DNA of 64,000 nucleotides. Source: a virus (taxonomy: Duplodnaviria; Caudoviricetes). The stretch is from IMG/VR virus record IMGVR_UViG_3300010362_000015, positions 9,593-73,592 of that record; one strand, 5' to 3'. A program made the translations under genes and the position numbers. The notes beneath the pieces were generated by a model. It was not told where the DNA came from, made no database searches, and saw only the letters and a list, made by a program, of their open reading frames with translations. Below, piece after piece: positions 198 through 35,862 of the stretch (the first letter of the stretch is position 1; every line of letters starts with the position of its first letter).

Positions 198-505
198 TAG
201 CGCACCTCCACGCCGCGCACGAGCGAGGTATAGGAGTTGACGTCCTCGGGCCGCACCGGCTCGACGGTGGCGCGCATGTCGGCGACGCCGGGCCGCGCGG
301 CGATCCAGCGTTCGGCGCCCGCGCGCGTCTTCCAGTACTTGACCTGCGAGACTTCGTTCTCGGTGTACCAGACGCCGTCCCAGGTGCCCGCGCCGTCGTT
401 CTTCGCGACCCAGGCGTTGCGCTCGAACTCGGGGCCGTACTGCCGGGCGATGATCACGCGGATTCGGTAGACCGGCTTGGTTTCGATTACTGCTGTGTTG
501 TTCAT
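197..505 (-). CDS. hypothetical protein (cassette 1, gene 1), 102 aa, leaderless start MNNTAV
   Basis: ATG lies 7 nt after the -10 of repeat promoter 1; the longer ORF-track start (571) runs through the promoter. Confidence 0.75.
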   Translation of the reverse strand: MNNTAVIETKPVYRIRVIIARQYGPEFERNAWVAKNDGAGTWDGVWYTENEVSQVKYWKTRAGAERWIAARPGVADMRATVEPVRPEDVNSYTSLVRGVEVR

Positions 506-556
506 ATTTCCTATTCTGCCTGATGCATGCATCTGCGTCAAGAGGCTTGGGGTGAA
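503..556 (-). promoter_or_regulatory. repeat promoter-operator copy 1
   Basis: Minus strand reads TTCACC-N9-TTGACG-17-CAGAAT-7-ATG; operator at 521-534. Confidence 0.85.
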
Positions 557-765
557 TTCTTCCAGGCCCAATCGCGCAGCCGGTCGGCGGCGTCGTTGCG
601 GCGCTCGCCTTCGAGTTGCAGCAGCGTGCTCTCGCCGGGCCGGTTGGGATGCACCAGGACGTCGGCGACGGCGAGCGGCAGATTCTTGCCGCGGTAGCCG
701 AGCGCCCGCGCGCCGCGGCGCAGGTGCTGGTCGGTGATGTCGCGCTCGGGCCGGGGCCGCCTCAT
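538..765 (-). CDS. hypothetical protein (cassette 2, gene 3), 75 aa
   Basis: ATGA overlap with the upstream ORF; its stop is the TGA inside the -35 of promoter 1. Confidence 0.7.
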   Translation of the reverse strand: MRRPRPERDITDQHLRRGARALGYRGKNLPLAVADVLVHPNRPGESTLLQLEGERRNDAADRLRDWAWKNSPQAS

Positions 766-1022
766 ACGTGGGCCGCCACGGCGTCAGCCAGCCTCTTCAG
801 GCCGTCGAGCACGGTCGCGAGATGCTCCAGCCGCTCGGCGTGCTGGTTGGTCGCCTGGATGAAAGCGCCGGGGCCCTGCGGGTAGTAGTCCCGCGCGTTG
901 GGGCCGTTCTCGGCGAGTACGCTGATCGCCTCGCGCACGGCGTTCATCGATTTGATGTAGCCGTCCAGCAGGTCACTGGCGGCGGTGCCGTTCAGGTGGA
1001 TCGAGGGGGTAATGAGTGCCAT
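762..1022 (-). CDS. hypothetical protein (cassette 2, gene 2), 86 aa
   Basis: AAAGG RBS and ATG 2 nt after the upstream stop; protein-like composition. Confidence 0.8.
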   Translation of the reverse strand: MALITPSIHLNGTAASDLLDGYIKSMNAVREAISVLAENGPNARDYYPQGPGAFIQATNQHAERLEHLATVLDGLKRLADAVAAHV

Positions 1023-1024
1023 GG

Positions 1025-1216
1025 TTAGTTGCCTTTCTCGGCCAGCTCCTCGAAGAGCCGGTCCAGTTCATCGTTCTGACGACGCCGGATGATCCGCTTG
1101 GTCGCCCGCCCGCAGCAGCCGCATTCCCATACCGGGCGCCCTTCGGCGTCCACGGTCGCAGTGTGCCGGGTCTGGCATCCGCAAGCTCCGTTGCACTGGC
1201 GTTTCGTCGTCTTCAT
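1025..1216 (-). CDS. small Zn-ribbon-like protein (cassette 2, gene 1), 63 aa
   Basis: CxxxC/CxC and WECGCC Cys clusters; ATG 7 nt after the -10. Confidence 0.7.
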   Translation of the reverse strand: MKTTKRQCNGACGCQTRHTATVDAEGRPVWECGCCGRATKRIIRRRQNDELDRLFEELAEKGN

Positions 1217-1268
1217 ACTTCCTATTGTGCCGGATGCATGCATCTGCCGTCAACGGGTATGGGGTGAA
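1214..1268 (-). promoter_or_regulatory. repeat promoter-operator copy 2
   Basis: TTTCACC-N9-TTGACG-18-CACAAT-7-ATG; operator at 1232-1245. Confidence 0.85.
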
Positions 1269-1534
1269 ACGCGCTCGCGCCTCGCAAAATACTGCTTGAT
1301 CATCTCGTCCTCCGACCGCTCGCGCTCCAGCTCGTTCCAGACCTCGCGCAGCAGGCGCCCGATGCTGCGGCCATAGGGCAGCAGGTCGATGCGGTCCAGC
1401 TCGGCCACGAGGTCGGGGTCGTCAATGCAGCCCATGACGCCGAGGGCCGAGGCCTTGAAGGCCTCCCAAGTCGTCGGGCCGTTCTTGCGCGCGACCACCA
1501 TCAGGCGGAACTTGATGCGCTGGCGGGCGGTCAT
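1250..1534 (-). CDS. hypothetical protein (cassette 3, gene 2), 94 aa
   Basis: ATG just after the upstream stop; terminates on the TGA in the -35 of promoter 2. Confidence 0.75.
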   Translation of the reverse strand: MTARQRIKFRLMVVARKNGPTTWEAFKASALGVMGCIDDPDLVAELDRIDLLPYGRSIGRLLREVWNELERERSEDEMIKQYFARRERVSPHTR

Positions 1535-1535
1535 G

Positions 1536-1727
1536 TTAGCTCACCCTTCCCATCAGCTTCAGGGCCCAGCGGGCGGCCAGCCGTGCGCAGCGACCGGCCT
1601 CAGCCGGGTTGTTGTCGCGAACGTGAAACTCGACCGCGTGGCCCCAGGCGGCAGCCTCGCCGCGGGCGTACTGCGTGTACTCCCGGTCCAGCATGTCTTT
1701 GCGCTCGGATTTGATCAGCTTCTTCAT
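1536..1727 (-). CDS. hypothetical protein (cassette 3, gene 1), 63 aa
   Basis: ATG 7 nt after the -10 TAGGAT. Confidence 0.75.
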   Translation of the reverse strand: MKKLIKSERKDMLDREYTQYARGEAAAWGHAVEFHVRDNNPAEAGRCARLAARWALKLMGRVS

Positions 1728-1778
1728 ACTCACTATCCTACCGGATGCATGCATCTGAGTCAATTGGTTTCAGGTGAA
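1725..1778 (-). promoter_or_regulatory. repeat promoter-operator copy 3
   Basis: TTTCACC-N9-TTGACT-17-TAGGAT-7-ATG; operator at 1743-1756. Confidence 0.85.
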
Positions 1779-1996
1779 ATCTTTGCGAGCGCCGCCAGGG
1801 CCTCGGTCTTGGTCTTGAAGCGTCCATACTCGGGGGCCTCGACCCAGCCGCGCACCGGCGAGATCGGATCTTCGGGCCGCACGAGCGACGAGTCCCAGCG
1901 GGCGATGCCCCAGCTGGCTGCGGTGCGCCGCGCGTAGCTGCGCTGGGAGTGGAAGGCCGTGAGGCGGCGGCTGCCGTAGTTGCGGACGGAGAGCAT
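1760..1996 (-). CDS. hypothetical protein (cassette 4, gene 2), 78 aa
   Basis: GGAGG plus TAATG coupling; stop lies in the -35 of promoter 3. Confidence 0.75.
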   Translation of the reverse strand: MLSVRNYGSRRLTAFHSQRSYARRTAASWGIARWDSSLVRPEDPISPVRGWVEAPEYGRFKTKTEALAALAKISPETN

Positions 1997-2232
1997 TAGC
2001 GCACCTCCGCGGGCGTCATCCAGGCCCGCCGGGTAGCTACGCTCTTCAGCATCTGGCGCACGGTCGAGGCGCTGTGGATGTGGCGGCTGCCGGTGGGATA
2101 TTCGAGCGTGACCAGAGAGCCGCCGGTGACCACGGTCGCGACCTCGAAGGCCTCAGTGTTGCGGTTCCAGTATTCAATCTTCATACCGGCCTCGAACTTC
2201 CGCGTGTGCTGAGTGACTGCTTTGTTCATCAT
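1996..2232 (-). CDS. hypothetical protein (cassette 4, gene 1), 78 aa, possible small SH3/Tudor-like beta fold
   Basis: ATG 7 nt after the -10 TAAGAT; FEAGMKIEY...FEVATVV beta-strand pattern (fold is a guess). Confidence 0.7.
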   Translation of the reverse strand: MMNKAVTQHTRKFEAGMKIEYWNRNTEAFEVATVVTGGSLVTLEYPTGSRHIHSASTVRQMLKSVATRRAWMTPAEVR

Positions 2233-2284
2233 GTCTCTAATCTTATCTGATGCATGCATCTGGAGTCAACGAGCAATGGGTGAA
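2230..2284 (-). promoter_or_regulatory. repeat promoter-operator copy 4
   Basis: TTTCACC-N9-TTGACT-18-TAAGAT-7-ATG; operator at 2248-2261. Confidence 0.85.
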
Positions 2285-2535
2285 ACGCGCCGGGCCTCGC
2301 GGCGTTCCTGCTCCGCGGCCAGCACCTCCTCCTGCCCGTAGATCAGAGCCAGGATGGTGATGCGGCGCTTGTAGTAGAGGCCGAGCCAGCCCTGCGCGGC
2401 GACCTTGCCGTTGCGGTCGTAGAGCCAGCCGCCGTTCATACCGTTGGCGCTGATCTCGACCTTCGCTGCGTACCACTTGGCGAGGCGCACGCGCGCCTCG
2501 CTCCAGGGATCTTGCCAGCACTTGGGAGTCTTCAC
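2266..2535 (-). CDS. hypothetical protein (cassette 5, gene 2), 89 aa
   Basis: AGGAGG RBS and GTG start overlapping the upstream stop; stop lies in the -35 of promoter 4. Confidence 0.75.
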   Translation of the reverse strand: MKTPKCWQDPWSEARVRLAKWYAAKVEISANGMNGGWLYDRNGKVAAQGWLGLYYKRRITILALIYGQEEVLAAEQERREARRVSPIAR

Positions 2536-2819
2536 TTACTTATCCTCCTTTGCACGCGGTAGCGGGCGACGATCTCGGCCCGGCGGGCGTGATCCTTCAG
2601 GGCGTCGGCCTCAGTGAGGTAGTAAACCCGGCGGCCCCTGGAGTCCTTATCCGGCCCCAGTTCGGCGAACATCCGGGTGCAGTGCAGGCAGCGCCATACC
2701 TTGTCATGCGTGACGCCGATCTCGGTCCCGGTCTTCAGGGCCGTCTTGCATTGCGGGCACTGTGAGTCAAACTTTGCCTTGATGGTTCGGATCTCGGCGG
2801 GCTTCATTGTCGTTTCCAT
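2532..2819 (-). CDS. Zn-finger protein (cassette 5, gene 1), 95 aa
   Basis: CPQC and CLHC pairs; ATG 6 nt after the -10. Confidence 0.75.
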   Translation of the reverse strand: METTMKPAEIRTIKAKFDSQCPQCKTALKTGTEIGVTHDKVWRCLHCTRMFAELGPDKDSRGRRVYYLTEADALKDHARRAEIVARYRVQRRISK

Positions 2820-2869
2820 GTTCTTAGTTTGCCAGATGCATGCATCTCACGCAAGGGGGAAGGGGTGAA
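2817..2869 (-). promoter_or_regulatory. repeat promoter-operator copy 5
   Basis: TTTCACC-N9-TTGCGT-17-CAAACT-6-ATG; perfect palindrome AGATGCATGCATCT at 2834-2847. Confidence 0.85.
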
Positions 2870-2873
2870 ATGC

Positions 2874-3110
2874 TCACCCCTGTGTCAGCCGCATGTGGCG
2901 CCGCGTCAGCCGCGGATGCCGCCGGAGCCGGTGGCCCTGGCTCATGTTGGTCAGCTGCTCGGCGACGCATGCGACGCGGAACCGCATGGGCGTGTGATGC
3001 GCCGCGGTGGCGTCCAGGGCCGCCGACATCGGCGAGCGCCCGTCGGTTTCGTCGCGGGCGGCCCGGCGCGCAGCGCCCCAGGCCAGATGGAATAATTCTC
3101 GTGTCGTCAT
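2874..3110 (-). CDS. hypothetical protein (cassette 6, gene 2), 78 aa, MTTREL start
   Basis: AAAGGA RBS upstream of ATG 3110. Confidence 0.7.
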   Translation of the reverse strand: MTTRELFHLAWGAARRAARDETDGRSPMSAALDATAAHHTPMRFRVACVAEQLTNMSQGHRLRRHPRLTRRHMRLTQG

Positions 3111-3124
3111 GTTCGTTCTTTCCT

Positions 3125-3388
3125 TTACCCTTTGAGGGCCGCCTCCGCGGCGGCCCGGTTGGTGCGCTTCCACTGCCCGTTCTGCATGAGGTAGAAGGTC
3201 GCGCGGAAGTGTTCCCGCTTGGGCATCGTGCGTGCGGTCACCGGAACCACATAAGCCTGGACGACGCCGTTGTCGGCGCTGCCTCTCTTCCAGCAAGCCT
3301 GAAACGTGCTGCCGTCTTCCCGGGTAACGGTGCGGATCTCCAGGGCCTTCGCGATTGCCGCGTCGATCAGTTGTTCTAACGTGTTCAT
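3125..3388 (-). CDS. hypothetical protein (cassette 6, gene 1), 87 aa
   Basis: ATG 6 nt after the -10 CATACT. Confidence 0.75.
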   Translation of the reverse strand: MNTLEQLIDAAIAKALEIRTVTREDGSTFQACWKRGSADNGVVQAYVVPVTARTMPKREHFRATFYLMQNGQWKRTNRAAAEAALKG

Positions 3389-3438: not shown

Positions 3439-3442
3439 ATGC

Positions 3443-3470
3443 AAAAAAAGAGGGGCCCATTGCGGGCCCC
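3443..3470 (-). terminator. intrinsic terminator insulating the cassette array from the upstream operon
   Basis: GGGGCCC stem (3452-3458/3464-3470), 5-nt loop, then CT and a 7-nt T run on the minus strand. Confidence 0.85.
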
Positions 3471-3521
3471 GAATTAATGGAGCTGTAAATGAAGCCGCGG
3501 GCCGGAAGGCCCTGGCAGCTG

Positions 3522-4045: not shown

Positions 4046-4191
4046 GCGCCAATCCTCCGCGCCCACTGCACCAGACTGTCGAGCGGCTGGCCCAGGAACC
4101 GGCGCACCATCGGGGCCGCGAAGACGATCACGCCCGCATCGTCCACATCCACCTGCACGGTGAACGCGCAGCATGTCACCCAGTACTTCAT
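4021..4191 (-). CDS. hypothetical protein, 56 aa
   Basis: ATGA overlap with the upstream stop at 4188. Confidence 0.6.
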   Translation of the reverse strand: MKYWVTCCAFTVQVDVDDAGVIVFAAPMVRRFLGQPLDSLVQWARRIGACKVHRLN

Positions 4192-4775
4192 CCGGCCAGC
4201 TTTGGCAGCCGCCACTCCTCACCCAGAGCGGCGCGCAACCAGGGCAGCGCCTGCTCTTCCGATAGTTTCTCACCTCGCCGCCAGAATTCCTGAGCGAGGT
4301 AAGGCCGCTCGGGCCGCACCGCAGACATCAGCGCCACGTTGCCCGGCTCTTCGAGCATGACGGCGCTGGCGACGGCGACGAAGATGTCGGGCCGGTCGGG
4401 GATGTGGGTCGGATCGTAGAGCATCGAGTATTCGGGCGGCACGTTCTGCGGGTCCACATGGATCTCGCGCTTGTAGTGGCGCGCAACGAGGTACGGGCAG
4501 ATCTGCAGTGCGAACTGGATGCACTCGTGGTGCCCGGGCAGATCGTAATACGCGCCGTGCTGGTGGTAGGCCGAGAGCGGTCCACCGGCGAACCACTTCC
4601 ACTTGCCCAGGCGCTCGCCGCACATCGGGCAGAGCTGCTGCCGGATGGCCCGCCGCCGTTTCTCATCGTCATTGACCGTGAACAGCGGGTCGCCGTTGCG
4701 ACCGATCACCACGTTCCACGGGACCGGCAGGCCGCGGAACCGCGGCAGCGCAGCGATACGTGGCGGCATGGTCAT
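4188..4775 (-). CDS. Zn-binding hypothetical protein
   Basis: LPVPW, LCPMCG, HxxC and CPYL motifs; ATGA coupling. Confidence 0.75.
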   Translation of the reverse strand: MTMPPRIAALPRFRGLPVPWNVVIGRNGDPLFTVNDDEKRRRAIRQQLCPMCGERLGKWKWFAGGPLSAYHQHGAYYDLPGHHECIQFALQICPYLVARHYKREIHVDPQNVPPEYSMLYDPTHIPDRPDIFVAVASAVMLEEPGNVALMSAVRPERPYLAQEFWRRGEKLSEEQALPWLRAALGEEWRLPKLAG

Positions 4776-5380
4776 AGCTCGGGGATCGACCACTGAACGT
4801 GATGAACGATCTCTTTGCATGTCTTCAACTCCCGAATCAGCGCCCCTGCGATTTTCATACGCCGGTTCAGGCTGCGCCAATCGGGGCTTCTCCGATACGC
4901 CTCATCCTCCATGCGCGAGTATTCGATGCGAACGCCAGCCATATTGCGTGCAGTCCACTGTTTTGCCCCGCTATACGGACCCATCAATCCCGGCCCGATG
5001 ATGATGCCATGTTGTGGCCGCTCGGCCTGCCAGATGGAGAAGTCCGCGAACACGCGGTCGGCGACCGCGATCAGATGGCCGTTCCACCTGCCGACGGTTG
5101 ATCCGACCGGAGGATGACCGAATCCGATCCCGATGCTATAGGAGCCGTCAACGCTGATCCACTTGCGGAGGTCGTAGTCGCCCTCGTCGATATGCATCGC
5201 GAACGCGCGGTTGTAGATCGCCACTTGGCAGGCGACGGGTTGAACCTCGATGCCAAAATATCGCGCGACTTCCATGGCGACGCGCACGCCGAACACGCAC
5301 AGGTCGCGCCGCTTCAGGTTCGTTTCAATCGCCGGGCCGATCCGCGGGACGAGCTGCTGGAAGAGTTCCGCGGCGGTCAC
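4772..5380 (-). CDS. hypothetical protein, possible transglutaminase/papain-like fold
   Basis: Cys in DLCVFG, His in WNGHLIAV, Asp in FADFS, in catalytic-triad order. Confidence 0.6.
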   Translation of the reverse strand: MTAAELFQQLVPRIGPAIETNLKRRDLCVFGVRVAMEVARYFGIEVQPVACQVAIYNRAFAMHIDEGDYDLRKWISVDGSYSIGIGFGHPPVGSTVGRWNGHLIAVADRVFADFSIWQAERPQHGIIIGPGLMGPYSGAKQWTARNMAGVRIEYSRMEDEAYRRSPDWRSLNRRMKIAGALIRELKTCKEIVHHVQWSIPEL

Positions 5381-5874
5381 TCTCCGGCCTCCGTCTCGTA
5401 GATCACCTCAGCATAGGCGAAGCGCACAAGCCGGATCTTCTTGCCCATGGCGCTGGCTTGCGCCTCGAAGCGCTCCGCGAAGGGCTCGACCTTGCCGCGC
5501 TTGACCGCCACGATGGGAATGTAGCCCGCCGGGCAGAGGCCTTGCTTGATGCCCCATTCGCCGGTGCGTTGAGTGCGGTCGGGCTGATCGTCCTGGCCGA
5601 TCCAGGCGTATAGCTCCATGTTCTTAATCCGTTCGGGTATGCGGTTCACGATCATTTCCTTGTCGATCACTCCCAGGTCTGTCGCCGCCCGCAACAAATC
5701 TTTCAGGTCATGCGCATCGAATTTTTCGTACAGGTGATACCAGTGGTTCCTCACGCTCTGAGAAGTTGTGCGCAGACGGCCTGCGATCTGCCGGGCGTTT
5801 CTTCCTGCGGCCAGCAGCTTGAGAATATCCAGCTCACGCGGAGTGAGGTGCGGCGGCTTTGCGGGCCCTGTCAC
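5377..5874 (-). CDS. LuxR/GerE-type HTH protein with an unknown C-terminal domain
   Basis: N-terminal LTPRELDILKLLAAGRNARQIAGRLRTTSQSVRNHWYHLYEKF matches the LuxR HTH pattern. Confidence 0.85.
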   Translation of the reverse strand: MTGPAKPPHLTPRELDILKLLAAGRNARQIAGRLRTTSQSVRNHWYHLYEKFDAHDLKDLLRAATDLGVIDKEMIVNRIPERIKNMELYAWIGQDDQPDRTQRTGEWGIKQGLCPAGYIPIVAVKRGKVEPFAERFEAQASAMGKKIRLVRFAYAEVIYETEAGE

Positions 5875-8633: not shown

Positions 8634-9563
8634 TCAAATCTTGACCTCCACATCGCGTTCCTTCACGATCTTCTTGCCGCGGTTGCCGCGCACGGTCATG
8701 GGCGACCAGACCAACGTGTTGTATTTCCCGAACAGGCCTGCACCTTGTCTGTAGTCCCTGAAATGCCCGCGGCAGATATGCAGCGCGCGTGCGAGCCCGA
8801 CCTTGTCGGAGCCGCCCTCACGCTTGAGAATCTGCTTGAGCGGCTCGATTACGAGCGTCTTGTAGCCCGACGGGCTCGCGCCCCCGTGCCGCTCGCGATA
8901 GCGCTTCACCAGCTTCGCGTCGGGCTGGTTGTCGATCACGCGCACATTCTTACAGTGCAGGAACGAGATCGCCAGGAAGGTCGGGTTGAGATAAGTGATG
9001 TGCGCCTTGAGGATCTCATCGTGCAGCCCGCCGGTGTAGGTCTGTATCCATGGCCGCTCGATGATCGCGCCGTTCTCATCCACCATGAGAAAGACCGAGC
9101 CATGCGGCCCGTCGGCGACGATATCGCGCCTGATCCGGTAGTCGATGAAATACTCGCACCATAAGATCCACTTGCATGTATCAGGTGCGGCCTTGTCGGC
9201 GACGATCTGGCCCTGAGGATCGAGGGCGGATACGAGCACGCCCATGCGCCCGCCCGCGAAGTGGTCGGAGATATCCGTCAGCCCCTTCTCTTTCGAATAA
9301 ACGTGGTTGGGCAGCGGATGCTCGAACCAGCACTGCGTCCACGGCGGCGCGAGGTTGGGCATGTCGGTGCGCAGATCCCAATACTCCTGATCGCTCTGGA
9401 AGAAATACTCCGCGATGTTGGCGATATGGATCACCGGCATATCGGCCTGCAGGAAGTCGAGCACCTTCTGCGCGTACCGCTCCCACACGTCTTCCATGCT
9501 GGGCGCGATGAACCACGGCATGCGCACCGGGCCGCGGCGAAGATCATCGAGGAAGCGGGCCAT
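8634..9563 (-). CDS. hypothetical protein, paralogue A, 309 aa
   Basis: Long ORF; C-terminal LHICRGHFRDYRQGAGLFGK shared with the neighbour. Confidence 0.85.
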   Translation of the reverse strand: MARFLDDLRRGPVRMPWFIAPSMEDVWERYAQKVLDFLQADMPVIHIANIAEYFFQSDQEYWDLRTDMPNLAPPWTQCWFEHPLPNHVYSKEKGLTDISDHFAGGRMGVLVSALDPQGQIVADKAAPDTCKWILWCEYFIDYRIRRDIVADGPHGSVFLMVDENGAIIERPWIQTYTGGLHDEILKAHITYLNPTFLAISFLHCKNVRVIDNQPDAKLVKRYRERHGGASPSGYKTLVIEPLKQILKREGGSDKVGLARALHICRGHFRDYRQGAGLFGKYNTLVWSPMTVRGNRGKKIVKERDVEVKI

Positions 9564-9566: not shown

Positions 9567-10502
9567 TCAGATGCGTACTTTGATCTCGGGCGGCGTTGCC
9601 TTGGCGCCTTCTGCCTTCGAGCCGCGGACGTGCATCGGCTGCCAGTAGATCCCGTGGTGTTTGCCGAATAAGCCCGGGCCCTCGCGGAAATCCATGAAGT
9701 GTCCGCGGCAGATGTGCAGCGCCTTCTGCAGGCCGATCTCGCCCGACCGGCCCTCCTTCTCCAGGATGCCCTTTAATGGTTCGATTACGAGCGTCTTGTA
9801 TGGAGCCGGGCTCACGCCGCCATGGCGTTCGCGATAGCGCTTCGCCAGCTTGGGATCGGCGGTGTGATCGATAATTCGCACGTTCTTGCAATGCAGGAAG
9901 CATAGCGTTAGCAGAACAGGATTGAGCGACAGCTGTAGAGCTGCGCTCTCGCCAGGAACGGGCTTATCGCCGTAGGACGCCTGAAACCATCCGACCGGGC
10001 GCCCTTCTTTGCTTATGTCAACATAGATCGGAGGCGTTGGCCCCAATGGCTTCCAGCTGCGAACACCCCTGATCTGATAGCTCTCGCCGAAACTTAGGCA
10101 GAGTTCACACTGGAGAATCCATCTGGTTTCAGCGGACGGAGCTTGAGTTTCTGCGTAGTGGCCAACGAGAGCAGCGGGGTCAAGCGCTGTTATCAGAAAG
10201 CCGAAACGGGAGCGGGGACTTGCTACTGGTAGAAATTTACCCCAAGGCGGCTTGCGGAACTCGGCCCAAAACTGCGTGTAAGGTGGGGCGAGGTTCGGGA
10301 AGTCGCGCACAATATCCCACTTGATTTCTTCGCCGCCATAAATATAGTCGGCTATATTGTCGATCAGAAATATTGGCAGATCGCCCATCAAGGCAGTGGT
10401 GAAGCTTTCCCGGGCCTTGAGCCAGTGCGGCGATGTCACCGGAACGGACTCGGGCCTTTCCAATCTGCTATCGGCGCGCAGATCATCGATGAACCGGCTC
10501 AT
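9567..10502 (-). CDS. hypothetical protein, paralogue B, 311 aa
   Basis: Long ORF; shares MxRFxDDLR, PNLAPP and the C-terminal block with 8634-9563. Confidence 0.85.
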   Translation of the reverse strand: MSRFIDDLRADSRLERPESVPVTSPHWLKARESFTTALMGDLPIFLIDNIADYIYGGEEIKWDIVRDFPNLAPPYTQFWAEFRKPPWGKFLPVASPRSRFGFLITALDPAALVGHYAETQAPSAETRWILQCELCLSFGESYQIRGVRSWKPLGPTPPIYVDISKEGRPVGWFQASYGDKPVPGESAALQLSLNPVLLTLCFLHCKNVRIIDHTADPKLAKRYRERHGGVSPAPYKTLVIEPLKGILEKEGRSGEIGLQKALHICRGHFMDFREGPGLFGKHHGIYWQPMHVRGSKAEGAKATPPEIKVRI

Positions 10503-11791: not shown

Positions 11792-12136
11792 TCAGGCCGC
11801 GGCGATGCAGGCGCATTTCTTCACGCAGGAAAAGCCGCCCTTCTCCACCCAGATCCAACCGGAGCCGCCGCAGACCGGGCAGCCGGTATTCTTCGGTGAG
11901 CTGAGGTTGTAGTCGTCCGGTGGATGAAAATAGTCGAAGATGTCGCCCGGCTTCGGGCACTCCCGTTTTCTCTGCGTCAGCGTCCAGCTATCGACAAAGC
12001 CTTCAGCGGCCTCGCGCGTGGGCGCTTCCATCATGGCCTTGAGCAGCTGCCCGACGGCTCCTTCGTCCTGCGGGAAATAGCTCAAACCCGACAATCTTCT
12101 AACTAGCACGTATGCGATTGCAGGATCTATCGGCAT
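11792..12136 (-). CDS. replication-associated protein with a C-terminal Zn finger (helicase loader-like position)
   Basis: Directly downstream of the initiator; CPKPGDI and CPVCGGSGW...CAC motifs. Confidence 0.6.
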   Translation of the reverse strand: MPIDPAIAYVLVRRLSGLSYFPQDEGAVGQLLKAMMEAPTREAAEGFVDSWTLTQRKRECPKPGDIFDYFHPPDDYNLSSPKNTGCPVCGGSGWIWVEKGGFSCVKKCACIAAA

Positions 12137-13202
12137 ATAGCCTCAGCACCTCCTCCATCTTTGCGTCGGCTTTGCTCATGGGCTTGCGCACCACCGGCTC
12201 GATGCGCCACTCGCCCTCGGCTATCCATCGCCACAACTGCGGAACGTACTTTTCCACCGGTAGCGTCGCCCAGTATTCGCACCACGCCGGATGATGCTCG
12301 CGCATAACGTTGGCAGCTGACGGGTCGCGCCGCAGAACCTTGTCGATCTCCGCGGCGGCCTTGAGCGGCAGGCCCGGCTGTGGATGTTCCGCCATCAGCT
12401 CGAAGGCCAGCTGCTCGGCCTCGGAAACCTGTCGAACTTCGCCGTGCTCGCCCGGTATATAGTTCGGGGGCGGCGAGTCGGGTCTGGTCCCGGGCCGGTA
12501 GTCTGCACCGTCAGCCACTCGTTGAACGGCGTCGCCCCCTGAGCACACCCCCTGGCTCACCGGCTGAGCCCGGGCTTGTAAATTCTCCTTCAATGAACCA
12601 GATCGAACCGGTTCTGCTGCCGGTTCCACTCGCGCTCGGTGTTGCTCTATTTTCGACTCATCACACGCCGCCGCCGCCGCCGCCGGTCGCGCCTCGTCTC
12701 GCCCCTTCTTAACTTCAACAGGCGGCACGGCGGCGAGTGGTTCAGAAACAGATGGTTCAAAGACAGTTGGTTCATATATAGATAGCGGCAGCTCGAACTG
12801 TCGCTGGTGACAACTTGTCTTTGTCATCGGTGACAACTTGTCTTTGTCATCGGTGACAGTTCGGCTTCGTCTCGCCCGTGGCCGAGTTGCCCGGTTCTCG
12901 GCCTTCTGCCACTGGTCCTCGGTGGCGATTACGTAGTCACAGGACAAGCTGCCATGCTGCTGGACTCGGAGGATGCCGCGGGACCGCAGCAGGCCGGTCG
13001 CCCGATCCAATGTGCTGAGCGAAATCCCGGCACGCTCGGCCAGCTTCTCGCGCTTGGGATTACACTGGCCCGTCTGCCTGTTACGAAACGTCATTAAAGC
13101 GGCGAAAACTCTTATCACCGAGTGCGTGACGGAATGATCACAAGCCAATACTTGAGGGATGCAAATGTAAGGGGTTGTGGGATAATAAGCAGCAGTGGAC
13201 AC
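12099..13202 (-). CDS. replication initiator with N-terminal HTH (lambda O-like organisation)
   Basis: CNPKREKLAERAGISLSTLDRATGLLRSRGIL HTH; internal iterons; GTG 13202 with AGGGAGA RBS. Confidence 0.75.
   Translation of the reverse strand: MSTAAYYPTTPYICIPQVLACDHSVTHSVIRVFAALMTFRNRQTGQCNPKREKLAERAGISLSTLDRATGLLRSRGILRVQQHGSLSCDYVIATEDQWQKAENRATRPRARRSRTVTDDKDKLSPMTKTSCHQRQFELPLSIYEPTVFEPSVSEPLAAVPPVEVKKGRDEARPAAAAAACDESKIEQHRARVEPAAEPVRSGSLKENLQARAQPVSQGVCSGGDAVQRVADGADYRPGTRPDSPPPNYIPGEHGEVRQVSEAEQLAFELMAEHPQPGLPLKAAAEIDKVLRRDPSAANVMREHHPAWCEYWATLPVEKYVPQLWRWIAEGEWRIEPVVRKPMSKADAKMEEVLRLYADRSCNRIRAS
12738..12858. repeat. putative replication origin: two perfect 23-bp iterons plus a partial third, and three TGGTTCA-led 15-mers
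   Basis: GGTGACAACTTGTCTTTGTCATC at 12806-12828 and 12829-12851; TGGTTCA at 12738, 12753 and 12768 next to ATATATAGAT. Confidence 0.75.
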
Positions 13203-13318
13203 CGGGTCATCTCCCTGGCCTTTGCGGACCTGACTAAGTCGTTTGCAGCGACTAAGGTGTTCGATGGGTAAAAGTCTCGCGGCTCGCACCGGCGGGCCGC
13301 ATTTGTTTTTTACGGTCC

Positions 13319-13675
13319 TTAAGGCGCGCGTTCGAGGCGTTCCAGCCAATCGCGGAGTTGCTCTCCGGCCTGCACGATGACGATGTCGAAGCCGTAGCCC
13401 ATACGCAGTTCGGCGTGCCGCTTGCGCTGCACGTCGGTCGGCTGCTCGCCGGGCCGCTTCGCTTCCATGAAGACGGAGCCGGGGGCGGCCAGCAGCCAGT
13501 CGGGATCGCCGGGCGTGCCCATCGTCACCCAGTTCCCATTCGGCGTGCGGAACCGCCCCACATGTTGGCGCACCGGGTAATACCCGTATCGCCGCGCCAG
13601 CTTCAAGCACACGCGCTCGACGTCGTTTTCGGAATACTCGACGCGCTCGGGGCGCAGTGCAAATCTGGAACTCAC
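13319..13675 (-). CDS. VRR-NUC / PD-(D/E)XK nuclease
   Basis: GDPDWLL...FMEAKRPGEQPTDVQRKRHAEL; GTGA overlap. Confidence 0.85.
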   Translation of the reverse strand: MSSRFALRPERVEYSENDVERVCLKLARRYGYYPVRQHVGRFRTPNGNWVTMGTPGDPDWLLAAPGSVFMEAKRPGEQPTDVQRKRHAELRMGYGFDIVIVQAGEQLRDWLERLERAP

Positions 13676-14264: not shown

Positions 14265-14593
14265 CGGGCGACCTCCGGCGTTGTCATGGCGATGCGCAGC
14301 GCATCGATGTCATCGGGGTACTTGTTCTTGAAGTCGGCCAGCGTGTACGTGAGGTCGAGTTTGGGCCGCTTGCCCCACGGGCACATCGGACCTTCCCAGT
14401 GATAGCGGATGAGGTCGCCGTCGAGCTTGGCCCACTCGAACGATTCCTGCGTGATCGAACGGCGGAAGATCTCGATCATCGATTCCTCCCGAACGCAAAA
14501 AACCCGGGGGCGCGCGGCCCCCGGGTCGATTGGCATCCAATATTGGCCGGTGATCTCACGCGGCCCTCTTCCTGGCATATCTGCCGGGAACAC
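14261..14593 (-). CDS. hypothetical protein, up to 110 aa
   Basis: ORF overlapping the recombinase 3' end; start uncertain. Confidence 0.6.
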   Translation of the reverse strand: MFPADMPGRGPREITGQYWMPIDPGAARPRVFCVREESMIEIFRRSITQESFEWAKLDGDLIRYHWEGPMCPWGKRPKLDLTYTLADFKNKYPDDIDALRIAMTTPEVAR

Positions 14594-16247
14594 GTCCCTT
14601 TAAATTGAACGGGATAGTGACGAAAGAACTGTTATCGCCGGGAACACCGCAATAACAGTTTCCAGCCGGTAAAACTACCCGCCCGATGATCTCGAACTCG
14701 CGGGTGCGGTCGTCGTAGATGACCTTCTCGCAGAAGCGCTTGAGGATCTCCACGCGGTCGGCGAACTCAGTCGGCTCGCCGGGCTCCACGATCTCGTCGC
14801 AGAAACTCTCGATGGCCGCATCCTCCGGCATAGCCACCACGTTGGCCTGCGCTGCGATGTCGGCCTTCACCACCTCGATCTGCGCCTTCACGGCAGCCAA
14901 GCGCTTCTGCGCCTCCGCATAGGGCACTGAGCTGTTCTGGTCGTACACCACGTCCACTGCGCGCTTCTCCTGCTTCAGGAGGGCCGCCAACTGGGCCTTC
15001 AGGTCAGGACCGGCGGCGGGTTTGCCCTGGCATCCATAGTACGCCCGCACCCAGCCTTTGAGAGTAGCTTTGTTGGTGACTTCGGACCAGACCACGGTAA
15101 AGACCGACCGGTCCAGGAGCTTCGAGGAAACGCCCCCGGCGGGACACAACCGGACGCAGTAATCCTTGCGGTCTATGTTGCCGCAACGATACGTCGGGCC
15201 GCCGCTGCCCGGGCTGGTGCTCAGGCGGCTGCCGCAGCGCTTGCAGACGGCCATCTTGGAAAGCTCGTACTGCTTCGACGGACGGCCTACGCGCAGGGCC
15301 TTGTTCCGCAGGTTGGCCTGCACTTTGTGGAAGACCGCCGCGGTGACGATGCTGGGGCATTTGGTGATCTTCTCTTCGCCGTCGATGGACTCATGAAAGT
15401 CGCCGATGTAGGCCGTGTTGGTGAGCATCTGGTACACAGTGGTGCGGCCCCAGCGACCGTCGTTCACGTCGCCCCTGGTGCGGCTCTTCCTGCTCAGTTT
15501 CTTTCCGGCGCGTGGGCTTGGGATGCCGAGCTTGTTGAGTTTCCGCGCGATCTCGGTCGGCCCGAGATGCGGATCGCAGGCCCACAGGAACACCATGCGG
15601 ATGATCTCGGCCTGCGCATCGATGACAACCATGGTGCCGCGCGAGCCCTGCTTCTTGCCGACATACTTGTACCCGAAGGGCACACTGTTCGTCATGACGA
15701 ATCCCTCGCGGGCTTTCTGGCGGCGGCAGCGCGTGGTGCGCTCGATGATCTTGTACTTCTCGTACTCGTTCATCGCGCCCTTGAAGTGGCGCATCAGGTT
15801 TCCCTCGGGCGAACGGGCGTAGTCCTCGTTGACGAATTCCAGGCGCACGTTGTGCTGCTCGCACAGATCTTCGAGAAAGAGCTGCAAGCTCAGCTTGCGG
15901 ATCAGCCGGTCGAGCGAGAAGACCAGCAGCACGTCGATGAGTTCCGCGCGAATGATGTCGATCAACCTCTGGACGGCGGGCCGGTTGAGATCCTTGCCGC
16001 TGAAGTTGTCGTCGATGAACATCAGACTGTCATCGGTGTAGTAGCCGCGCTTCTTGGCGCATTCGAGCGTTTCGTAATCCTGCGACTTGATGGAGTAGTT
16101 GGCCCCGACCTCGCTCTCTGGCGTCGGCGAGATCCGCGCGTAGCGCGCGCAGACCAGCAGCTTGGTGTCGGGCCGCTTGAACACTACCTGAAGATCAGAT
16201 TTGGCGGCGGGCTGTTTAGGCCGCTTCGTTGGTCGCGGACTCATCAT
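14556..16247 (-). CDS. large serine recombinase (integrase-type)
   Basis: YARIS catalytic Ser, DDNFSGKDLNRP and SLDRLIR resolvase motifs, VPFGY recombinase domain, CKRCG...YRC Zn ribbon, coiled coil. Confidence 0.93.
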   Translation of the reverse strand: MMSPRPTKRPKQPAAKSDLQVVFKRPDTKLLVCARYARISPTPESEVGANYSIKSQDYETLECAKKRGYYTDDSLMFIDDNFSGKDLNRPAVQRLIDIIRAELIDVLLVFSLDRLIRKLSLQLFLEDLCEQHNVRLEFVNEDYARSPEGNLMRHFKGAMNEYEKYKIIERTTRCRRQKAREGFVMTNSVPFGYKYVGKKQGSRGTMVVIDAQAEIIRMVFLWACDPHLGPTEIARKLNKLGIPSPRAGKKLSRKSRTRGDVNDGRWGRTTVYQMLTNTAYIGDFHESIDGEEKITKCPSIVTAAVFHKVQANLRNKALRVGRPSKQYELSKMAVCKRCGSRLSTSPGSGGPTYRCGNIDRKDYCVRLCPAGGVSSKLLDRSVFTVVWSEVTNKATLKGWVRAYYGCQGKPAAGPDLKAQLAALLKQEKRAVDVVYDQNSSVPYAEAQKRLAAVKAQIEVVKADIAAQANVVAMPEDAAIESFCDEIVEPGEPTEFADRVEILKRFCEKVIYDDRTREFEIIGRVVLPAGNCYCGVPGDNSSFVTIPFNLKGRVPGRYARKRAA

Positions 16248-16627: not shown

Positions 16628-16677
16628 GTCTCGAAATTAACATGATCCGTATTAAGCCTCAAGAGTTTTGGGGTGAA
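16625..16677 (-). promoter_or_regulatory. repeat promoter copy 9 (no operator)
   Basis: TTTCACC-N9-TTGAGG-17-TAATTT-6-ATG; spacer lacks ATGCAT. Confidence 0.7.
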
Positions 16678-23717: not shown

Positions 23718-23829
23718 ACAATTCTCCTGTCTGCGTTCAGGCCGTGGGAACGGTCGCCGCACCTGCTTGGTTAGTGAGTTAGCAACCCGCCAGGGATTCG
23801 CTGTCACTCAACAAATGCGGAACACCAAA

Positions 23830-23858
23830 AATATAAGCCGACACTTCGAGCGTGTCAA
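23830..23858 (-). promoter_or_regulatory. strong leftward early promoter with an overlapping inverted repeat
   Basis: TTGACA-17-TATATT; GACAC-N7-GTGTC at 23840-23856. Confidence 0.8.
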
Positions 23859-24402
23859 GCCATTTAAGTGCCTGAACGCAAAAAACTTAGTTATGTTTTA
23901 CGAACTACTTTTTTCACCAATTAGCAGGTGTTAGTGAAGCCATAACTCACCTGCTTACTATCCAACTTTTTTTCTGAAGTAATGGACCTGATCGCGTGCG
24001 GTTTCAACGGCGAGCTATGACTGCCAAAAAAGACGTGGCTAGAAGTGCTCAGCAAACAGCCGTGATCGTAGTGGGGGAGGTGGCAATAAAGGTGTGATCG
24101 CAGTGGTATCGAAAGAGTCGTTGCGACCACCTGTTGCATGGTGGGAATTATCCTATAAAATGCAGAGACAATCACAGGAGAAAATCTGCCTAGATAGAGT
24201 TGACTGTAACGTATGGTACATGGATCTGTCACAACCATTTCCACAAGGGAAACGCCCGTACCAGAACCACTTGGACTAATGGAATCAGAGGTTTGAATTG
24301 TGACTTGCGTTGTGGGTAATTCGGAACACTGTTACATATATTTCGGCGCAGCCAGGGCAGCCTTTAGCCAGGATTCATACCGGACATCCGGTAGGCCATT
24401 AA

Positions 24403-24443
24403 TTATCCAAAAACGACATGTTGAAGTTGCCGTTTCTGGATAA
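24403..24443 (-). repeat. 41-bp hairpin B, twin of 11753-11791
   Basis: 16-bp stem, fully paired on the minus strand with two G-U pairs; ends 16 nt before the AraC ATG. Confidence 0.8.
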
Positions 24444-24459
24444 CTGACAAAACCGTAAT

Positions 24460-25467
24460 ATGACTGGATCACAGAACTCCGCGCGCTTTGTTACCGATGA
24501 CCTGGAGCAAGCCTGCCGGTATTTCACGGGCGTCTATTGTAACCGCGTCGAGTCTATTGGCCGCAACCGGCATGAGTTCCACGTCACGGCGGAAACGATC
24601 CGGCTGGAACTGCTCACGGTCCATATCCTGCACGGGACCGGCAGTATGAACTGCACCATCCACAACGATAAGTCGTACACGTTCATTCGCATGGAAGAGG
24701 GAGTATTTGGCCGGAGCTACGATGGCCGTCAGTTCTATGTGCCCGCGGGCCGGGCCATCCTCGTGCCCGAACAGAGTGAGGGACTCATCCAGTGGGAAGG
24801 CGACTGCAATGGCGTCTCGATACAGATACCCGCCAGCGCGATCCAGCGCAAGGCCGAACGTCTGATCGCGGAGCCGCTCCCCGACCACCGCCGTCTCGAA
24901 CTCGACGGGATGTTGAATTTGACGGCCCCCACTCTCCTGGGGCAGGAGCTTGAATTCCTCCTGGAGCAACTGCAGAGCAACGGCTCGCTGTTCGATGACA
25001 AGTACCGGAAGCTGCGCGAGGCGTTTCAGCGGGCCATCATCCAGGCTTTGATCGAGGACACGCCCAACAACTATCAATCGCTACTCGCGCACCGCTATGG
25101 CGGCGCGGCCCGGAGATATGCATCCAAGTTCGACGAGTACATCGAGGAGCATATCGAGCTGCCGGTCGGCATCGTGGACATCGCCGCGACCATCGGCTGC
25201 AGTGCGCGAACCCTGCGGAACGCCTGCTGGCGCGTGTATGACGAGTCGCCGGAAACGCGGCTCAGGCGGAAGCGGCTCCACCGGGCCCATGCGCGCCTCG
25301 AAAATCCTCTGCCCGAAGACACCGTCGATTCGATAGCTCGTGAATCCGGCTTCGTTCATCTGGGCCGGTTTGCACAGCGATACCAACAGGAATTCCAGGG
25401 TGAGCTGCCGCGCGAAACACTGCGCGAAGGACGCCGGAAGCGGGGCATCGTCATCGATAAGGGATGA
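24460..25467 (+). CDS. AraC/XylS-family transcriptional regulator with ligand-binding N-domain (EutR/AntR-like)
   Basis: C-terminal DIAATIGCSARTL...SIARESGFVHLGRFAQRYQQEFQGELPRETL double HTH. Confidence 0.92.
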   Translation: MTGSQNSARFVTDDLEQACRYFTGVYCNRVESIGRNRHEFHVTAETIRLELLTVHILHGTGSMNCTIHNDKSYTFIRMEEGVFGRSYDGRQFYVPAGRAILVPEQSEGLIQWEGDCNGVSIQIPASAIQRKAERLIAEPLPDHRRLELDGMLNLTAPTLLGQELEFLLEQLQSNGSLFDDKYRKLREAFQRAIIQALIEDTPNNYQSLLAHRYGGAARRYASKFDEYIEEHIELPVGIVDIAATIGCSARTLRNACWRVYDESPETRLRRKRLHRAHARLENPLPEDTVDSIARESGFVHLGRFAQRYQQEFQGELPRETLREGRRKRGIVIDKG

Positions 25468-30422: not shown

Positions 30423-30433
30423 AGTGTTCTCCT

Positions 30434-34624: not shown

Positions 34625-35064
34625 TACGCGACCTCCACGAGCATGAGCCCGGGCATGACGTGGCGGCCCAGTTCGGTGCGCTGCGACCAATCGCCGCGGA
34701 AGATGCAGGTCACGCGCCCCTGCGTGCTGGCGCCCGATGAGTCGTAGTTGCTGCCCATGTGATGATTCGGCAGGACGTCGAAGGGATTGTAGAAGTAGAA
34801 GGGCCGCAGGCCGCCCTGCACCGTGACGTCGAAGAAGTTGTAGAGGGTGGCGAGCTGGCCGGAGTTGAGCCGTTTGGCCATCGTCCAGGTACGCAGCGCG
34901 CGCGGCGCGTTGACGCCGTCCTGGATGACGGAACGTTCGAGCGTCCCGTCGTTGTACATCATGACCAGCAGCGGGTAGGAGAGGGATTCGGCGAAGGAGG
35001 TGCAGAGGGATTGCGGCAGCACCGCACCAGCCGCAACTGACGCTGCAGCGAGGTTCCCGGGCAC
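34624..35064 (-). CDS. distal tail protein (Dit-like)
   Basis: LYNFFDVTVQGGLRPFYFYNP motif; lies between tape measure and tail tip. Confidence 0.7.
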   Translation of the reverse strand: MPGNLAAASVAAGAVLPQSLCTSFAESLSYPLLVMMYNDGTLERSVIQDGVNAPRALRTWTMAKRLNSGQLATLYNFFDVTVQGGLRPFYFYNPFDVLPNHHMGSNYDSSGASTQGRVTCIFRGDWSQRTELGRHVMPGLMLVEVA

Positions 35065-35089
35065 GATGCTGCTATTTTAGCTGGGGTTT

Positions 35090-35281
35090 TTACGCCGGGC
35101 GAGGCCGGATGGCAAAGATCTCGGCTGACGGATATACCCTGCGGATCGCTTCCATGTTCGATTCGTCCCGCCCGGGGAAGATATCATCCAGGCCGTGGTC
35201 GCACTCGATTTTCTGAGTGCGATTGTTCCAGGAGGCATATACTGCGAGGTCCATCTTGGGAAAGTAGATTGTGTAATTCAT
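35090..35281 (-). CDS. hypothetical protein (cassette 7, gene 2), 63 aa
   Basis: GGGGAG RBS, ATGA overlap. Confidence 0.7.
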   Translation of the reverse strand: MNYTIYFPKMDLAVYASWNNRTQKIECDHGLDDIFPGRDESNMEAIRRVYPSAEIFAIRPRPA

Positions 35282-35484
35282 CGGCCTTCTCCCCGGCGAG
35301 CGGTCATGCCGTGGTTGCCGTGGCTGTCCTCCACGCTGAGGCCGAGCGCCAGGGCCACTACGCGGAGCTGGCCCTTGGGGACGCCGCACTCGCGCGACGC
35401 CCTCGTCAGCGAAACCCAGCCGCGGCGACCGGCTGCCACTTCCTTCATCTGGTTGACCGCTTTGTCGTATGCTTCGTTCTTCAT
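35278..35484 (-). CDS. hypothetical protein (cassette 7, gene 1), 68 aa, possible HTH
   Basis: ATG 6 nt after the -10; WVSLTRASRECGVPKGQLRVVAL is HTH-like. Confidence 0.7.
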   Translation of the reverse strand: MKNEAYDKAVNQMKEVAAGRRGWVSLTRASRECGVPKGQLRVVALALGLSVEDSHGNHGMTARRGEGR

Positions 35485-35534
35485 ATTTTCAGGATAGAGC
35501 AGATGCATGCATGGCGCAACAGTCTTGGGGTGAA
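35482..35534 (-). promoter_or_regulatory. repeat promoter-operator copy 7 (inside the tail operon)
   Basis: TTTCACC-N9-TTGCGC-17-TATCCT-6-ATG; operator at 35501-35514. Confidence 0.85.
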
Positions 35535-35535
35535 A

Positions 35536-35811
35536 TCAGAACAGGATGTCGTCGGGGTGAGGCGTCCACAAGTCGGGCCGTTCGGGGTGCTCGTAGGGTT
35601 CGTCCGCTGCCTGGGGGAGATCATCCGCCTGGGGCTCATCGGCCTCGGGCTTATCGGCCTGATGGCGGATGTAGGAGGCGTGGTCGAACCAGGGCAGCTG
35701 GACTGCGCGAAACATGGTGTAATCGGCGTTCCAGACGAACTCGAAGCGGTTCGGGTTAAAGTTCTCGCACTCGCTCGCCGGGAACCACTTGCTGTTATCG
35801 TGTGTGCTCAT
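35536..35811 (-). CDS. acidic protein (cassette 8), 91 aa, C-terminus PDDILF
   Basis: ATG 6 nt after the -10 TAGACT; Asp/Glu/Pro-rich tail. Confidence 0.75.
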   Translation of the reverse strand: MSTHDNSKWFPASECENFNPNRFEFVWNADYTMFRAVQLPWFDHASYIRHQADKPEADEPQADDLPQAADEPYEHPERPDLWTPHPDDILF

Positions 35812-35862
35812 ATTCAAAGTCTAACGTCGGATGCATGTATCTGGCAAGAGGCTTTGGGTGAA
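35809..35862 (-). promoter_or_regulatory. repeat promoter-operator copy 8 (directly after the tape measure stop)
   Basis: TTTCACC-N9-TTGCCA-18-TAGACT-6-ATG; operator at 35829-35842. Confidence 0.85.

Follow-up and report, generated by a model that had tools for sequence, protein, structure and literature searches.

Repeated Sigma-70-Type Promoter Modules with a Putative Operator in Their Spacers in a Temperate Phage of Probable Acidobacterial Host

Introduction

The window analysed here is a 64,000-nt stretch of DNA from a Caudoviricetes virus, namely bases 9593–73592 of the 73,592-bp IMG/VR record IMGVR_UViG_3300010362_000015, which is rated 100% complete and is designated G000 in what follows; window coordinates are obtained by subtracting 9592 from genome coordinates and are used throughout, unless a position is marked as a genome position. 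On the minus strand of this window, short genes are preceded by closely similar promoter modules, in each of which a palindromic element, hereafter the dyad, lies between the −35 and −10 hexamers. The question raised by this arrangement is what the dyad is for, and by what it is read.

A preliminary description of the window had proposed that a single repressor acts through the dyad on eight promoters and 16 small genes, and had presented the arrangement as an undescribed system. In the present analysis, the dyad is taken, with somewhat better than even confidence, to be the operator of a phage-specific dimeric repressor, by which repression in the spacer would be shared among about 15 leaderless promoters. 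The evidence comes from the anatomy of the modules, from their counterparts in related phages, and from the genes that they drive.

Inventory and Anatomy of the Promoter Modules

In the window, the decamer ATGCATGYAT is found at eight places (523, 1234, 1745, 2250, 2836, 3405, 35503, and 35831), which amounts to 14 strand-hits against 0.26 expected, a number that no shuffled sequence reached. All eight sites are on the minus strand, with start codons at 3388, 2819, 2232, 1727, 1216, and 505 (modules P1 to P6) and at 35811 and 35484; a TTG-type −35 box, a spacer of 17–18 nt, and an xAxxxT −10 box are present at every one of them, and behind each promoter stand one to three open reading frames (ORFs) of 63–102 aa, 16 in the window. 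Direct reading bore out the preliminary description in each of these particulars, as well as in the perfect 14-bp palindrome AGATGCATGCATCT at 2834–2847. Its totals of eight promoters and 16 genes are correct for the window, but they are an artefact of its edge, since the whole genome holds about 15–17 modules and about 37 ORFs. The 12 canonical modules, all of them oriented with transcription, lie at genome positions 45432, 45104, 13006, 12437, 11851, 11346, 10835, 10124, 9155, 8347, 7425, and 6807, and four to five further variant copies are present in the genome. An accessory region of 7 kb holds ten of the modules in tandem, and two are in the tail-gene block, between the tape-measure and distal tail genes; the window edge cuts the tandem array, so that the last four canonical positions above, together with several variants, fall in the adjoining 9.6 kb.

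A canonical module of about 55 bp reads, in order, TTTCACCCC, N7, TTGACn, a 17–18-nt spacer containing CAGATGCATGCATCTG, cAnAaT, 6–7 nt, and ATG. The upstream element TTTCACCCC, placed 7 nt from the −35 box, is invariant, and the dyad within the spacer has a perfect 10-bp core that extends to about 16 bp (16–18 bp at most). In an information profile of the canonical modules, near-maximal information is confined to TTCACCCC, TTG, and 10–13 dyad positions, and near-zero information is found in the N7 linker, the remaining spacer, and the stretch from −10 to ATG. Because the flanks have diverged almost freely while the dyad has not, the spacer element appears to be selected, not merely inherited; moreover, it shifts by 0–2 nt relative to both hexamers, which marks it as an independent element outside polymerase recognition. 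Two features of an operator are thereby present, namely the overlap of the dyad with the −35/−10 region and a constraint stronger than that on neighbouring non-contact positions.

The hexamers themselves are of the sigma-70 type and are spaced by 17 ± 1 nt in 12/12 canonical modules, and a scan for sigma-70 promoters at a threshold of 9 of 12 consensus positions recovered seven modules, where chance would give 0.6 and 1.7 hits in the two regions concerned. These results support the modules as sigma-70-type promoters with a common dyad-symmetric spacer element; sigma-32, sigma-54, and LexA-box readings, compared by eye, do not fit. The ATG is found 6–7 nt past the −10 box in 12/12 modules, and likewise in the related phages G001, G003, G004, G009, and L199 introduced below, a geometry that puts the predicted transcription start at the A of the ATG and predicts leaderless mRNAs. 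Where AGGA is present, it is only 1–3 nt from the module ATG, and no usable Shine-Dalgarno sequence is found there; the second and third genes of the cassettes carry ordinary Shine-Dalgarno sequences. As a further observation on the starts of these genes, the first six codons behind P6 (503–520) and P9 (genome 7380–7398) are identical (ATGAACAACACAGCAGT, MNNTAV) before the ORFs diverge, and many module-first genes begin with MN(N); the common codons may be an extension of the module into coding sequence or a preference of leaderless translation.

Individually, the modules vary around this consensus. P1 (3386–3439, minus strand, as are all that follow), the first of the array, combines TTTCACCCC with −35 TTGCTC, a spacer with CCAGATACATGCATCTGG, and −10 CATACT, and P2 (2817–2870) carries the perfect palindrome given above. 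P3 (2230–2285) has TTGACT, 18 nt, and TAAGAT; P4 (1725–1779) has TTGACT, 17 nt, and TAGGAT; P5 (1214–1269) has TTGACG, 18 nt, and CACAAT; and P6 (503–557) has TTGACG, 17 nt, and CAGAAT. In the tail-gene block, the module after the tape-measure gene (35809–35863) heads an ORF of 91 aa at 35536–35811, and the module at 35482–35535, whose left operator arm is weakened (CCATGCATGCATCTG), heads ORFs of 68 and 63 aa. Among the variants, those at genome 5440 and 4915 have the upstream element inverted (GGGGTGAAA), the one at genome 1553 precedes a GP88-family gene and draws its −35 from the dyad itself, and at genome 358, in non-coding DNA rich in repeats at the end of the record, a dyad stands alone with a TAGAAT box. 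Finally, a chassis-only copy without the palindrome (16625–16678; TTTCACCCC, N7, TTGAGG, spacer, TTAATT, 7 nt, ATG) heads a 127-aa ORF that adjoins the serine integrase gene. The integrase operon of G000 is headed by a chassis without the dyad; in the relative G001, a module with inverted GGGGTGAAA and a G001-type spacer has the serine integrase (39569–41356 of that contig) as its leaderless first gene.

A Common Chassis with Lineage-Specific Spacer Motifs in Related Phages

Fourteen IMG/VR contigs encode capsids 77–84% identical to that of G000, and the relatives compared are mostly genome fragments. They retain the chassis, including the leaderless ATG, but with other conserved motifs in the spacer. 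L217 has the CAGATGCATGCATCTG spacer of G000, without TTTCACCCC. In G003, G004, and G009, the spacer reads (T/G)AAAC-NN-CATG-NN-GTTT behind a linker of N6, and the inner NN pairs are often non-complementary; G001 is heterogeneous, with ACGTCTGCATGCGGACGT, ACTGCATGTAGT, and weaker forms. G006, a complete genome of 66 kb that has no capsid or terminase in common with G000, carries AAAWTCGAGCGAT in the spacer, a second TCGAGCGA after the −10 box, and, as the exception among these phages, a normal leader, and L199 carries CATACWAGCCT, which is not palindromic. The distance from the dyad centre to the −35 box is 11, 12–14, or 15 nt, depending on the phage. A metagenome scan for the G000 palindrome itself gave 29 chance hits and one real one.

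The non-complementary inner pairs of G003, G004, and G009 argue for protein contacts rather than a hairpin, and a chassis so widely held, with a site in its spacer that is specific to each lineage, is hard to explain otherwise than by operators for phage-specific repressors. Against this background, a purely structural role for the palindrome can be weighed, in which an alternating purine-pyrimidine or cruciform-prone spacer would tune the promoter with supercoiling, no dedicated protein would be involved, and copy-correction would keep the modules identical. The G000 sequence invites such a reading, as ATGCATGCAT is a perfect 10-nt alternating purine-pyrimidine tract, and the modules are clearly mutual copies, some of which have even their first codons (ATGAACAAC...) in common. 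It is nevertheless improbable: within the modules, the flanks have diverged almost to randomness and the dyad has not, the dyads of the relatives, with 6–8 alternating bases and non-complementary inner positions, fit neither Z-DNA nor a cruciform, and the conserved spacer motifs of G006 and L199 are non-palindromic. A Z-DNA reading, which had been drawn from weak Z-alpha matches together with the alternating tract, was dropped on the same ground that the dyads of relatives do not alternate.

Genome, Probable Host, and the Test for a Host Repeat

PHROG and Pfam scans identified a lambda-type large terminase (61192–63309), a portal protein (48931–50886), a head protease and major capsid protein (45374–46453), a tape-measure protein of 1262 aa (35865–39653), a RecE-like exonuclease, a replication initiator, and a large serine integrase (14556–16247). 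As judged by third-position guanine-cytosine (GC) content, the minus strand holds essentially every gene, with the exception of an AraC-family gene, and a long early operon is headed by a conventional promoter (TTGACA-17-TATATT) inside a 720-bp AT-rich region from which that gene faces away, gene and region together spanning 23740–25467. On the strength of the head and packaging, tape-measure, and integrase genes and of the near one-strand layout, the phage is classed from its sequence as a temperate siphovirus; its packaging and head module is lambda-like, and its integrase is of the serine type. Hairpin promoters of the N4 type, served by a virion RNA polymerase, were considered and rejected in view of the one-strand genes, lambda-like head genes, integrase, and tape measure.

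Several features of the genome stand apart from the modules. An ORF of 2706 aa (51549–59669, minus strand) between terminase and portal was entertained as an N4-like virion polymerase and rejected as collagen-like; it contains triple-helix repeats of collagen (E 1e-44) as well as a stretch of lower GC (~55%). In a Terriglobales metagenome-assembled genome (MAG), a binned contig has a collagen-like gene of 1281 aa at the matching position. The non-coding record end at genome 1–520, beyond window position 1, is dense in short direct repeats (CCACCAC, GCCGTCGGCCCG) and would lie about 1 kb upstream of the small terminase gene if the record ends were joined; a role in packaging or as a late-promoter region is conceivable. 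A blastn search of the early 8 kb against the phage database gave no match.

A capsid homologue with 75% identity is found on the contig binned into the Terriglobales MAG, and another with 41% identity in a Bryobacteraceae MAG, so that the host is probably an acidobacterium of soil. The preliminary description had allowed that the motif might prove to be a host-wide repeat unrelated to promoters, and this is rejected by genome scans. The full module pattern had seven single hits in prokaryote genomes totalling 596 Gb, and other viral contigs did not contain it; for the shorter pattern TTTCACCCC-N6/7-TTGAC, single hits in 401 Acidobacteriota genomes numbered 14, with 11 for a reversed control, and neither of the two MAGs with related phage contigs had any.

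The dyad could alternatively be bound by a host regulator, such as a global or stress-responsive repressor, which would tie the accessory genes to host physiology in the manner of LexA-controlled phages. Such a regulator would account for the lack of an assignable phage repressor, and a central CATG or GCATGC is common to all spacer dyads of the G000 clade. However, the outer arms of the dyads differ among phages whose capsids are ~80% identical and which probably infect similar hosts, the CATG centre takes the three phage-dependent distances from −35 noted above, and the Terriglobales MAG with the related phage contig has no copy of the module pattern, host genomes having been searched for this pattern and not for the bare dyad. 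Control by a host regulator is hence considered quite unlikely, and an operator for a phage-specific repressor remains the preferred reading.

Cassettes, Transcription Units, and Gene Turnover

The six modules of the array in the window head thirteen small cassette ORFs of 63–102 aa (6–3388, minus strand), between which no intrinsic terminator stands. An intrinsic terminator with an 8-bp GC stem and a T-run (3452–3470, minus strand) ends the long early operon just before P1, and a second strong terminator at genome 5808–5826 follows the 308-aa gene behind P10; none was found between the ten tandem modules P1–P10. Over the 7 kb of the array, a new promoter occurs every 500–950 bp, several upstream ORFs terminate on a TGA within the −35 box of the next module, and the units are not insulated from one another. 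As no terminators separate them, tandem modules would reinforce one long transcript.

Scanning 39 ORFs gave one significant Pfam family (GP88) and nine matches to PHROGs of unknown function. The cassette ORFs are mostly basic (isoelectric point, pI, 9–12), several with CxxC pairs, and the 91-aa product of 35536–35811 is strongly acidic (pI 4.4). Known Acr or Aca families were not detected among the module-driven ORFs, nor any Pfam or PHROG function except GP88. On their position and size, the role in anti-defence or host takeover put forward in the preliminary description is a reasonable guess, and the immediate-early timing put forward with it is conjectural. Apart from the module-driven genes, two tandem paralogues of ~310 aa (8634–9563 and 9567–10502, minus strand) belong to PHROG 20769, of unknown function, and gave no Pfam hit; homologues are present in G001 and G004 and also in G006, which is otherwise unrelated. 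The ESM Atlas clusters nearest to the two paralogues carry in part an AcrVA2-like annotation (PF26125; 28/30 hits, score 0.98), which is no more than a lead.

Cassette content changes rapidly between related phages. The structural genes of the relatives are 50–84% identical, but most cassette ORFs are without counterpart there, and the few that have one find it in other cassettes or positions. For instance, G001 has a homologue of gene g75, one module, and a homologue of g84, which encodes the 308-aa Zn-finger protein; in G000, g75 and g84 are separated by three module-headed cassettes (P7–P9, eight ORFs), after which P10 heads g84. Similarly, L217 lacks g69: its g68 homologue is followed directly by a module with the G000-type palindrome and then by the g70 homologue. 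G009 and G004 have modules between terminase and portal. In these sequence comparisons, cassette gains and losses are bounded by modules; a DNA alignment of the g72–module junction between G000 and G003 was too divergent to inform.

That boundaries of gain and loss coincide with modules, and that cassettes are also found within the late-gene regions of several relatives, could suggest that a site-specific nuclease or recombinase acts at the dyad to move cassettes, so that the modules would be mobility sites primarily and promoters secondarily. Homologous recombination between 55-bp repeats, however, suffices to explain the insertions and deletions with no such enzyme involved, the proteins that were scanned included no homing-endonuclease family, and a mobility site would not need to lie, as the dyad always does, exactly between −35 and −10. 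A mobility function is therefore judged very improbable.

Candidate Readers of the Dyad

In the regulatory half of the genome, Pfam recognized three DNA-binding proteins only, namely the AraC protein, an HTH_36 match that is probably the replication initiator (12099–13610), and a LuxR/GerE protein. The last of these (5377–5874, minus strand; 165 aa) has an N-terminal DNA-binding domain of the NarL/EsrB type, and domains of the NarL type bind as dimers to dyads of ~16 bp. It is proposed, tentatively, as the reader of the dyad; no homologue was found in the relatives examined.

The 68-aa ORF behind the module with the weakened left arm (35278–35484, minus strand) is a second candidate, which would be self-regulated. 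Structure prediction gives it a confident winged-helix fold (predicted local distance difference test, pLDDT, 88.7) with weak fold matches to MarR, Rrf2, and Z-alpha-type domains, and it is a member of a family of 60–80-aa proteins; on the basis of this model, its role as the reader is possible but doubtful. The chance that the reader is something other than these two proteins is put at only a little short of even. No protein family was found to track the type of spacer motif among the relatives examined.

Two further regulators named in the preliminary description have lost ground. The AraC-family regulator with an AraC_binding_2 domain (24460–25467), the only clear gene on the plus strand, is unlikely to be the reader, because its recognition helices are kept between G000 and G001 though the dyads differ, and because G006 has modules without an AraC gene; the gene is conserved in G001 and G002 and absent from G006. 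Moreover, a 16-bp dyad is too short for two AraC monomers. The gene is placed where an immunity repressor would sit, divergent from the main early promoter region. The frame at 48657–48947 (plus strand) is probably not a gene: it lies antisense to the portal gene, has a weak pattern of GC by codon position (0.62, 0.61, 0.76), and gives the impression of a shadow frame. Genes g59 and g58 (4188–4880 and 4772–5380, both on the minus strand), of unknown function, co-occur with module-bearing phages; g59 is present in G006 as well, a module drives g58 in both G001 and G004, their Atlas neighbours are viral hypothetical proteins only, and a search for related loci with g58 returned none. Both families were discarded as regulators, since they show no DNA-binding signature, and a 67-aa Zn-ribbon family common to G003, G004, and G009 was likewise set aside, no link to the modules having been made.

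The nature of the reader bears on a different explanation, in which the modules are promoters for phage-directed transcription, by a phage sigma factor, an activator, or appropriation of the polymerase, and constitute a regulon of middle genes that is activated rather than repressed; a positive factor would then recognize TTTCACCCC and the spacer motif. TTTCACCCC is invariant, is no general promoter element of the host, and is seen in the record in both orientations at slightly different distances, as asymmetric activator sites are. Moreover, g59 and the 309-aa family co-occur with module-bearing phages, including the unrelated G006, and the gene for the LuxR-type protein lies just upstream of the array. 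In spite of these points, the −35 and −10 boxes are good sigma-70 matches at canonical spacing, and a factor within a 17–18-nt spacer is positioned to block polymerase rather than to assist it; activation from the spacer in the manner of MerR uses a spacer of 19–20 nt. No sigma-factor or polymerase family was found in the scanned parts of the proteome, and L217 carries the G000 palindrome without TTTCACCCC. Phage-directed transcription is thus rather unlikely, and repression from the spacer continues to be preferred.

Proposed Mechanism and Implications

In the mechanism proposed for spacer repression, the chassis (TTTCACCCC, −35 TTGAC, a 17–18-nt spacer, and −10 cAnAaT) would be read by the sigma-70-type RNA polymerase of the host, transcription would start at the A of the ATG to give leaderless mRNA, and a dimeric phage-specific DNA-binding protein would occupy the CAGATGCATGCATCTG dyad between the hexamers and block the polymerase. 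One protein would silence all modules together, whether during lysogeny or, by negative feedback, once an early burst has passed. Besides reinforcing a long transcript in tandem, the modules, because they are near-identical, would serve as joints for the gain, loss, and exchange of cassettes.

Of the single-repressor regulon claimed in the preliminary description, the operator side is supported by the sequence, in the form of a phage-specific and constrained dyad within promoters; the repressor itself was not found. Several points weigh against the mechanism as a whole. The only database homologues of the GerE protein are without a recorded GerE domain and cover ~54–69% of the protein, and its gene is deep in the long early operon, from which it could not maintain lysogeny. 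Similarly, a 69%-identical homologue of the winged-helix protein in L199 stands behind a module with a different, non-palindromic spacer. The modules of G001 are heterogeneous, two of them barely palindromic, gene conversion could contribute to the identity of modules within a genome, and the host assignment is supported by one binned MAG contig.

A broader proposal, which is ventured as a possibility well short of even, is that the promoter chassis is portable and common to a clade of soil phages, with a slot in which the operator can be exchanged. A gene that came to lie between modules would acquire a strong leaderless promoter and enter a genome-wide regulon, and the change of specificity in concert (CAGATGCATGCATCTG, AAAC-N2-CATG-N2-GTTT, TCGAGCGA, CATACWAGCCT) would amount to an immunity-like diversification over 5–15 promoters. 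On this view, the dyad would be read by a novel family of small DNA-binding proteins, and TTTCACCCC would be a novel upstream element of promoters or a novel factor site. If the reading of the dyad as an operator is correct, dozens of fast-evolving accessory genes in a temperate phage are under one switch, and gain, loss, or exchange of a cassette never breaks regulation, because each cassette brings its own copy of promoter and operator. The chassis with its lineage-specific spacers is also a natural set of matched promoter-operator variants, useful for studies of how operators and repressors change together, and the ~37 small proteins are a defined pool for screens of host-directed or anti-defence activity. 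Acidobacteria are a major soil phylum for which, to our knowledge, there is almost no phage genetics; the modules would, if that reading is correct, offer an initial look at how promoters are built in their phages and at leaderless expression there.

Comparison with Known Systems

The term "undescribed system" proved to be overstated, since other phages are known to place repeated early promoters in a dispersed regulon under one repressor. In the Streptomyces phage phiC31, the c repressor binds conserved inverted repeats (CIRs) and thereby controls the whole set. Direct analysis of the phiC31 genome (AJ006589) gave 13 exact copies of the 16-bp palindrome CTACTCACGTGAGTAG and 9–10 copies of a conserved early-promoter sequence, by which the principle of many like promoters with one dyad and one repressor is established. 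The likeness to G000 extends to a temperate siphovirus with a serine integrase, near one-strand genes, many near-identical early promoters, and a dispersed 16-bp palindrome. The differences lie in the promoter repeats of phiC31, which are not sigma-70-like, and in its CIRs, which are mostly apart from promoters except for one close pair, whereas the G000 dyad is within the spacer of a sigma-70-type promoter; G000 differs further in its predicted leaderless geometry, its TTTCACCCC element, and its tiny, fast-turnover accessory cassettes. A phmmer search of G000 with the phiC31 c repressor gave no hit.

In phage P1, with its repressor C1, and in cluster A mycobacteriophages, with a repressor of the L5 gp71 type, one repressor likewise acts at ~17–30 sites dispersed over the genome. 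In the cluster A phages, specificity varies among related phages, and the sites, termed stoperators, are asymmetric, 13 bp long, and recognized by a monomer, with most of them acting on elongation in transcribed regions (PMC9283540, PMC6550527). G000 resembles P1 and the stoperator phages in having one site type scattered genome-wide, with specificity that differs between relatives. In contrast to the stoperator, the G000 site is a dyad, and nearly every copy is in a promoter spacer.

Anti-CRISPR (acr-aca) loci combine a strong promoter and small genes of unknown function with inverted repeats in the promoter, which are bound by a small helix-turn-helix protein encoded in the operon, and their expression follows a burst and then a shut-off (PMC9410906, PMC8633003). 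The pair formed by the acidic 91-aa ORF 35536–35811 and the 68-aa winged-helix ORF 35278–35484 resembles the Aca-type arrangement (PMC9410906). Aca, however, controls a single operon, whereas the G000 operator type serves ~15 promoters.

A likeness in cassette structure is found in T4-type phages, in which promoter-early stem-loops (PeSLs), small repeated regulatory sequences, bound variable small-ORF cassettes and are found at the ends of insertions and deletions between phages (PMC2839356, PMC4122927). G000 modules are similarly at such boundaries between relatives, as in the g75–g84 interval, with one module in G001 and four in G000, and in L217. A PeSL is a terminator plus a promoter; G000, by contrast, is temperate, has no terminator between cassettes, and carries an operator in its module. 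Morons of lambdoid phages, in turn, are self-promoted genes inserted between late genes with their own promoter and terminator. The module region at 35482–35863 shares with them its own promoter and its late-gene position, and no terminator was seen reading down to ~35040. Taken together, the regulon principle is known from other phages, and what is unusual is the modular build of chassis plus slot, with a site that differs between relatives; the points of real interest are this design across the relatives and the readers of the dyad and of TTTCACCCC.

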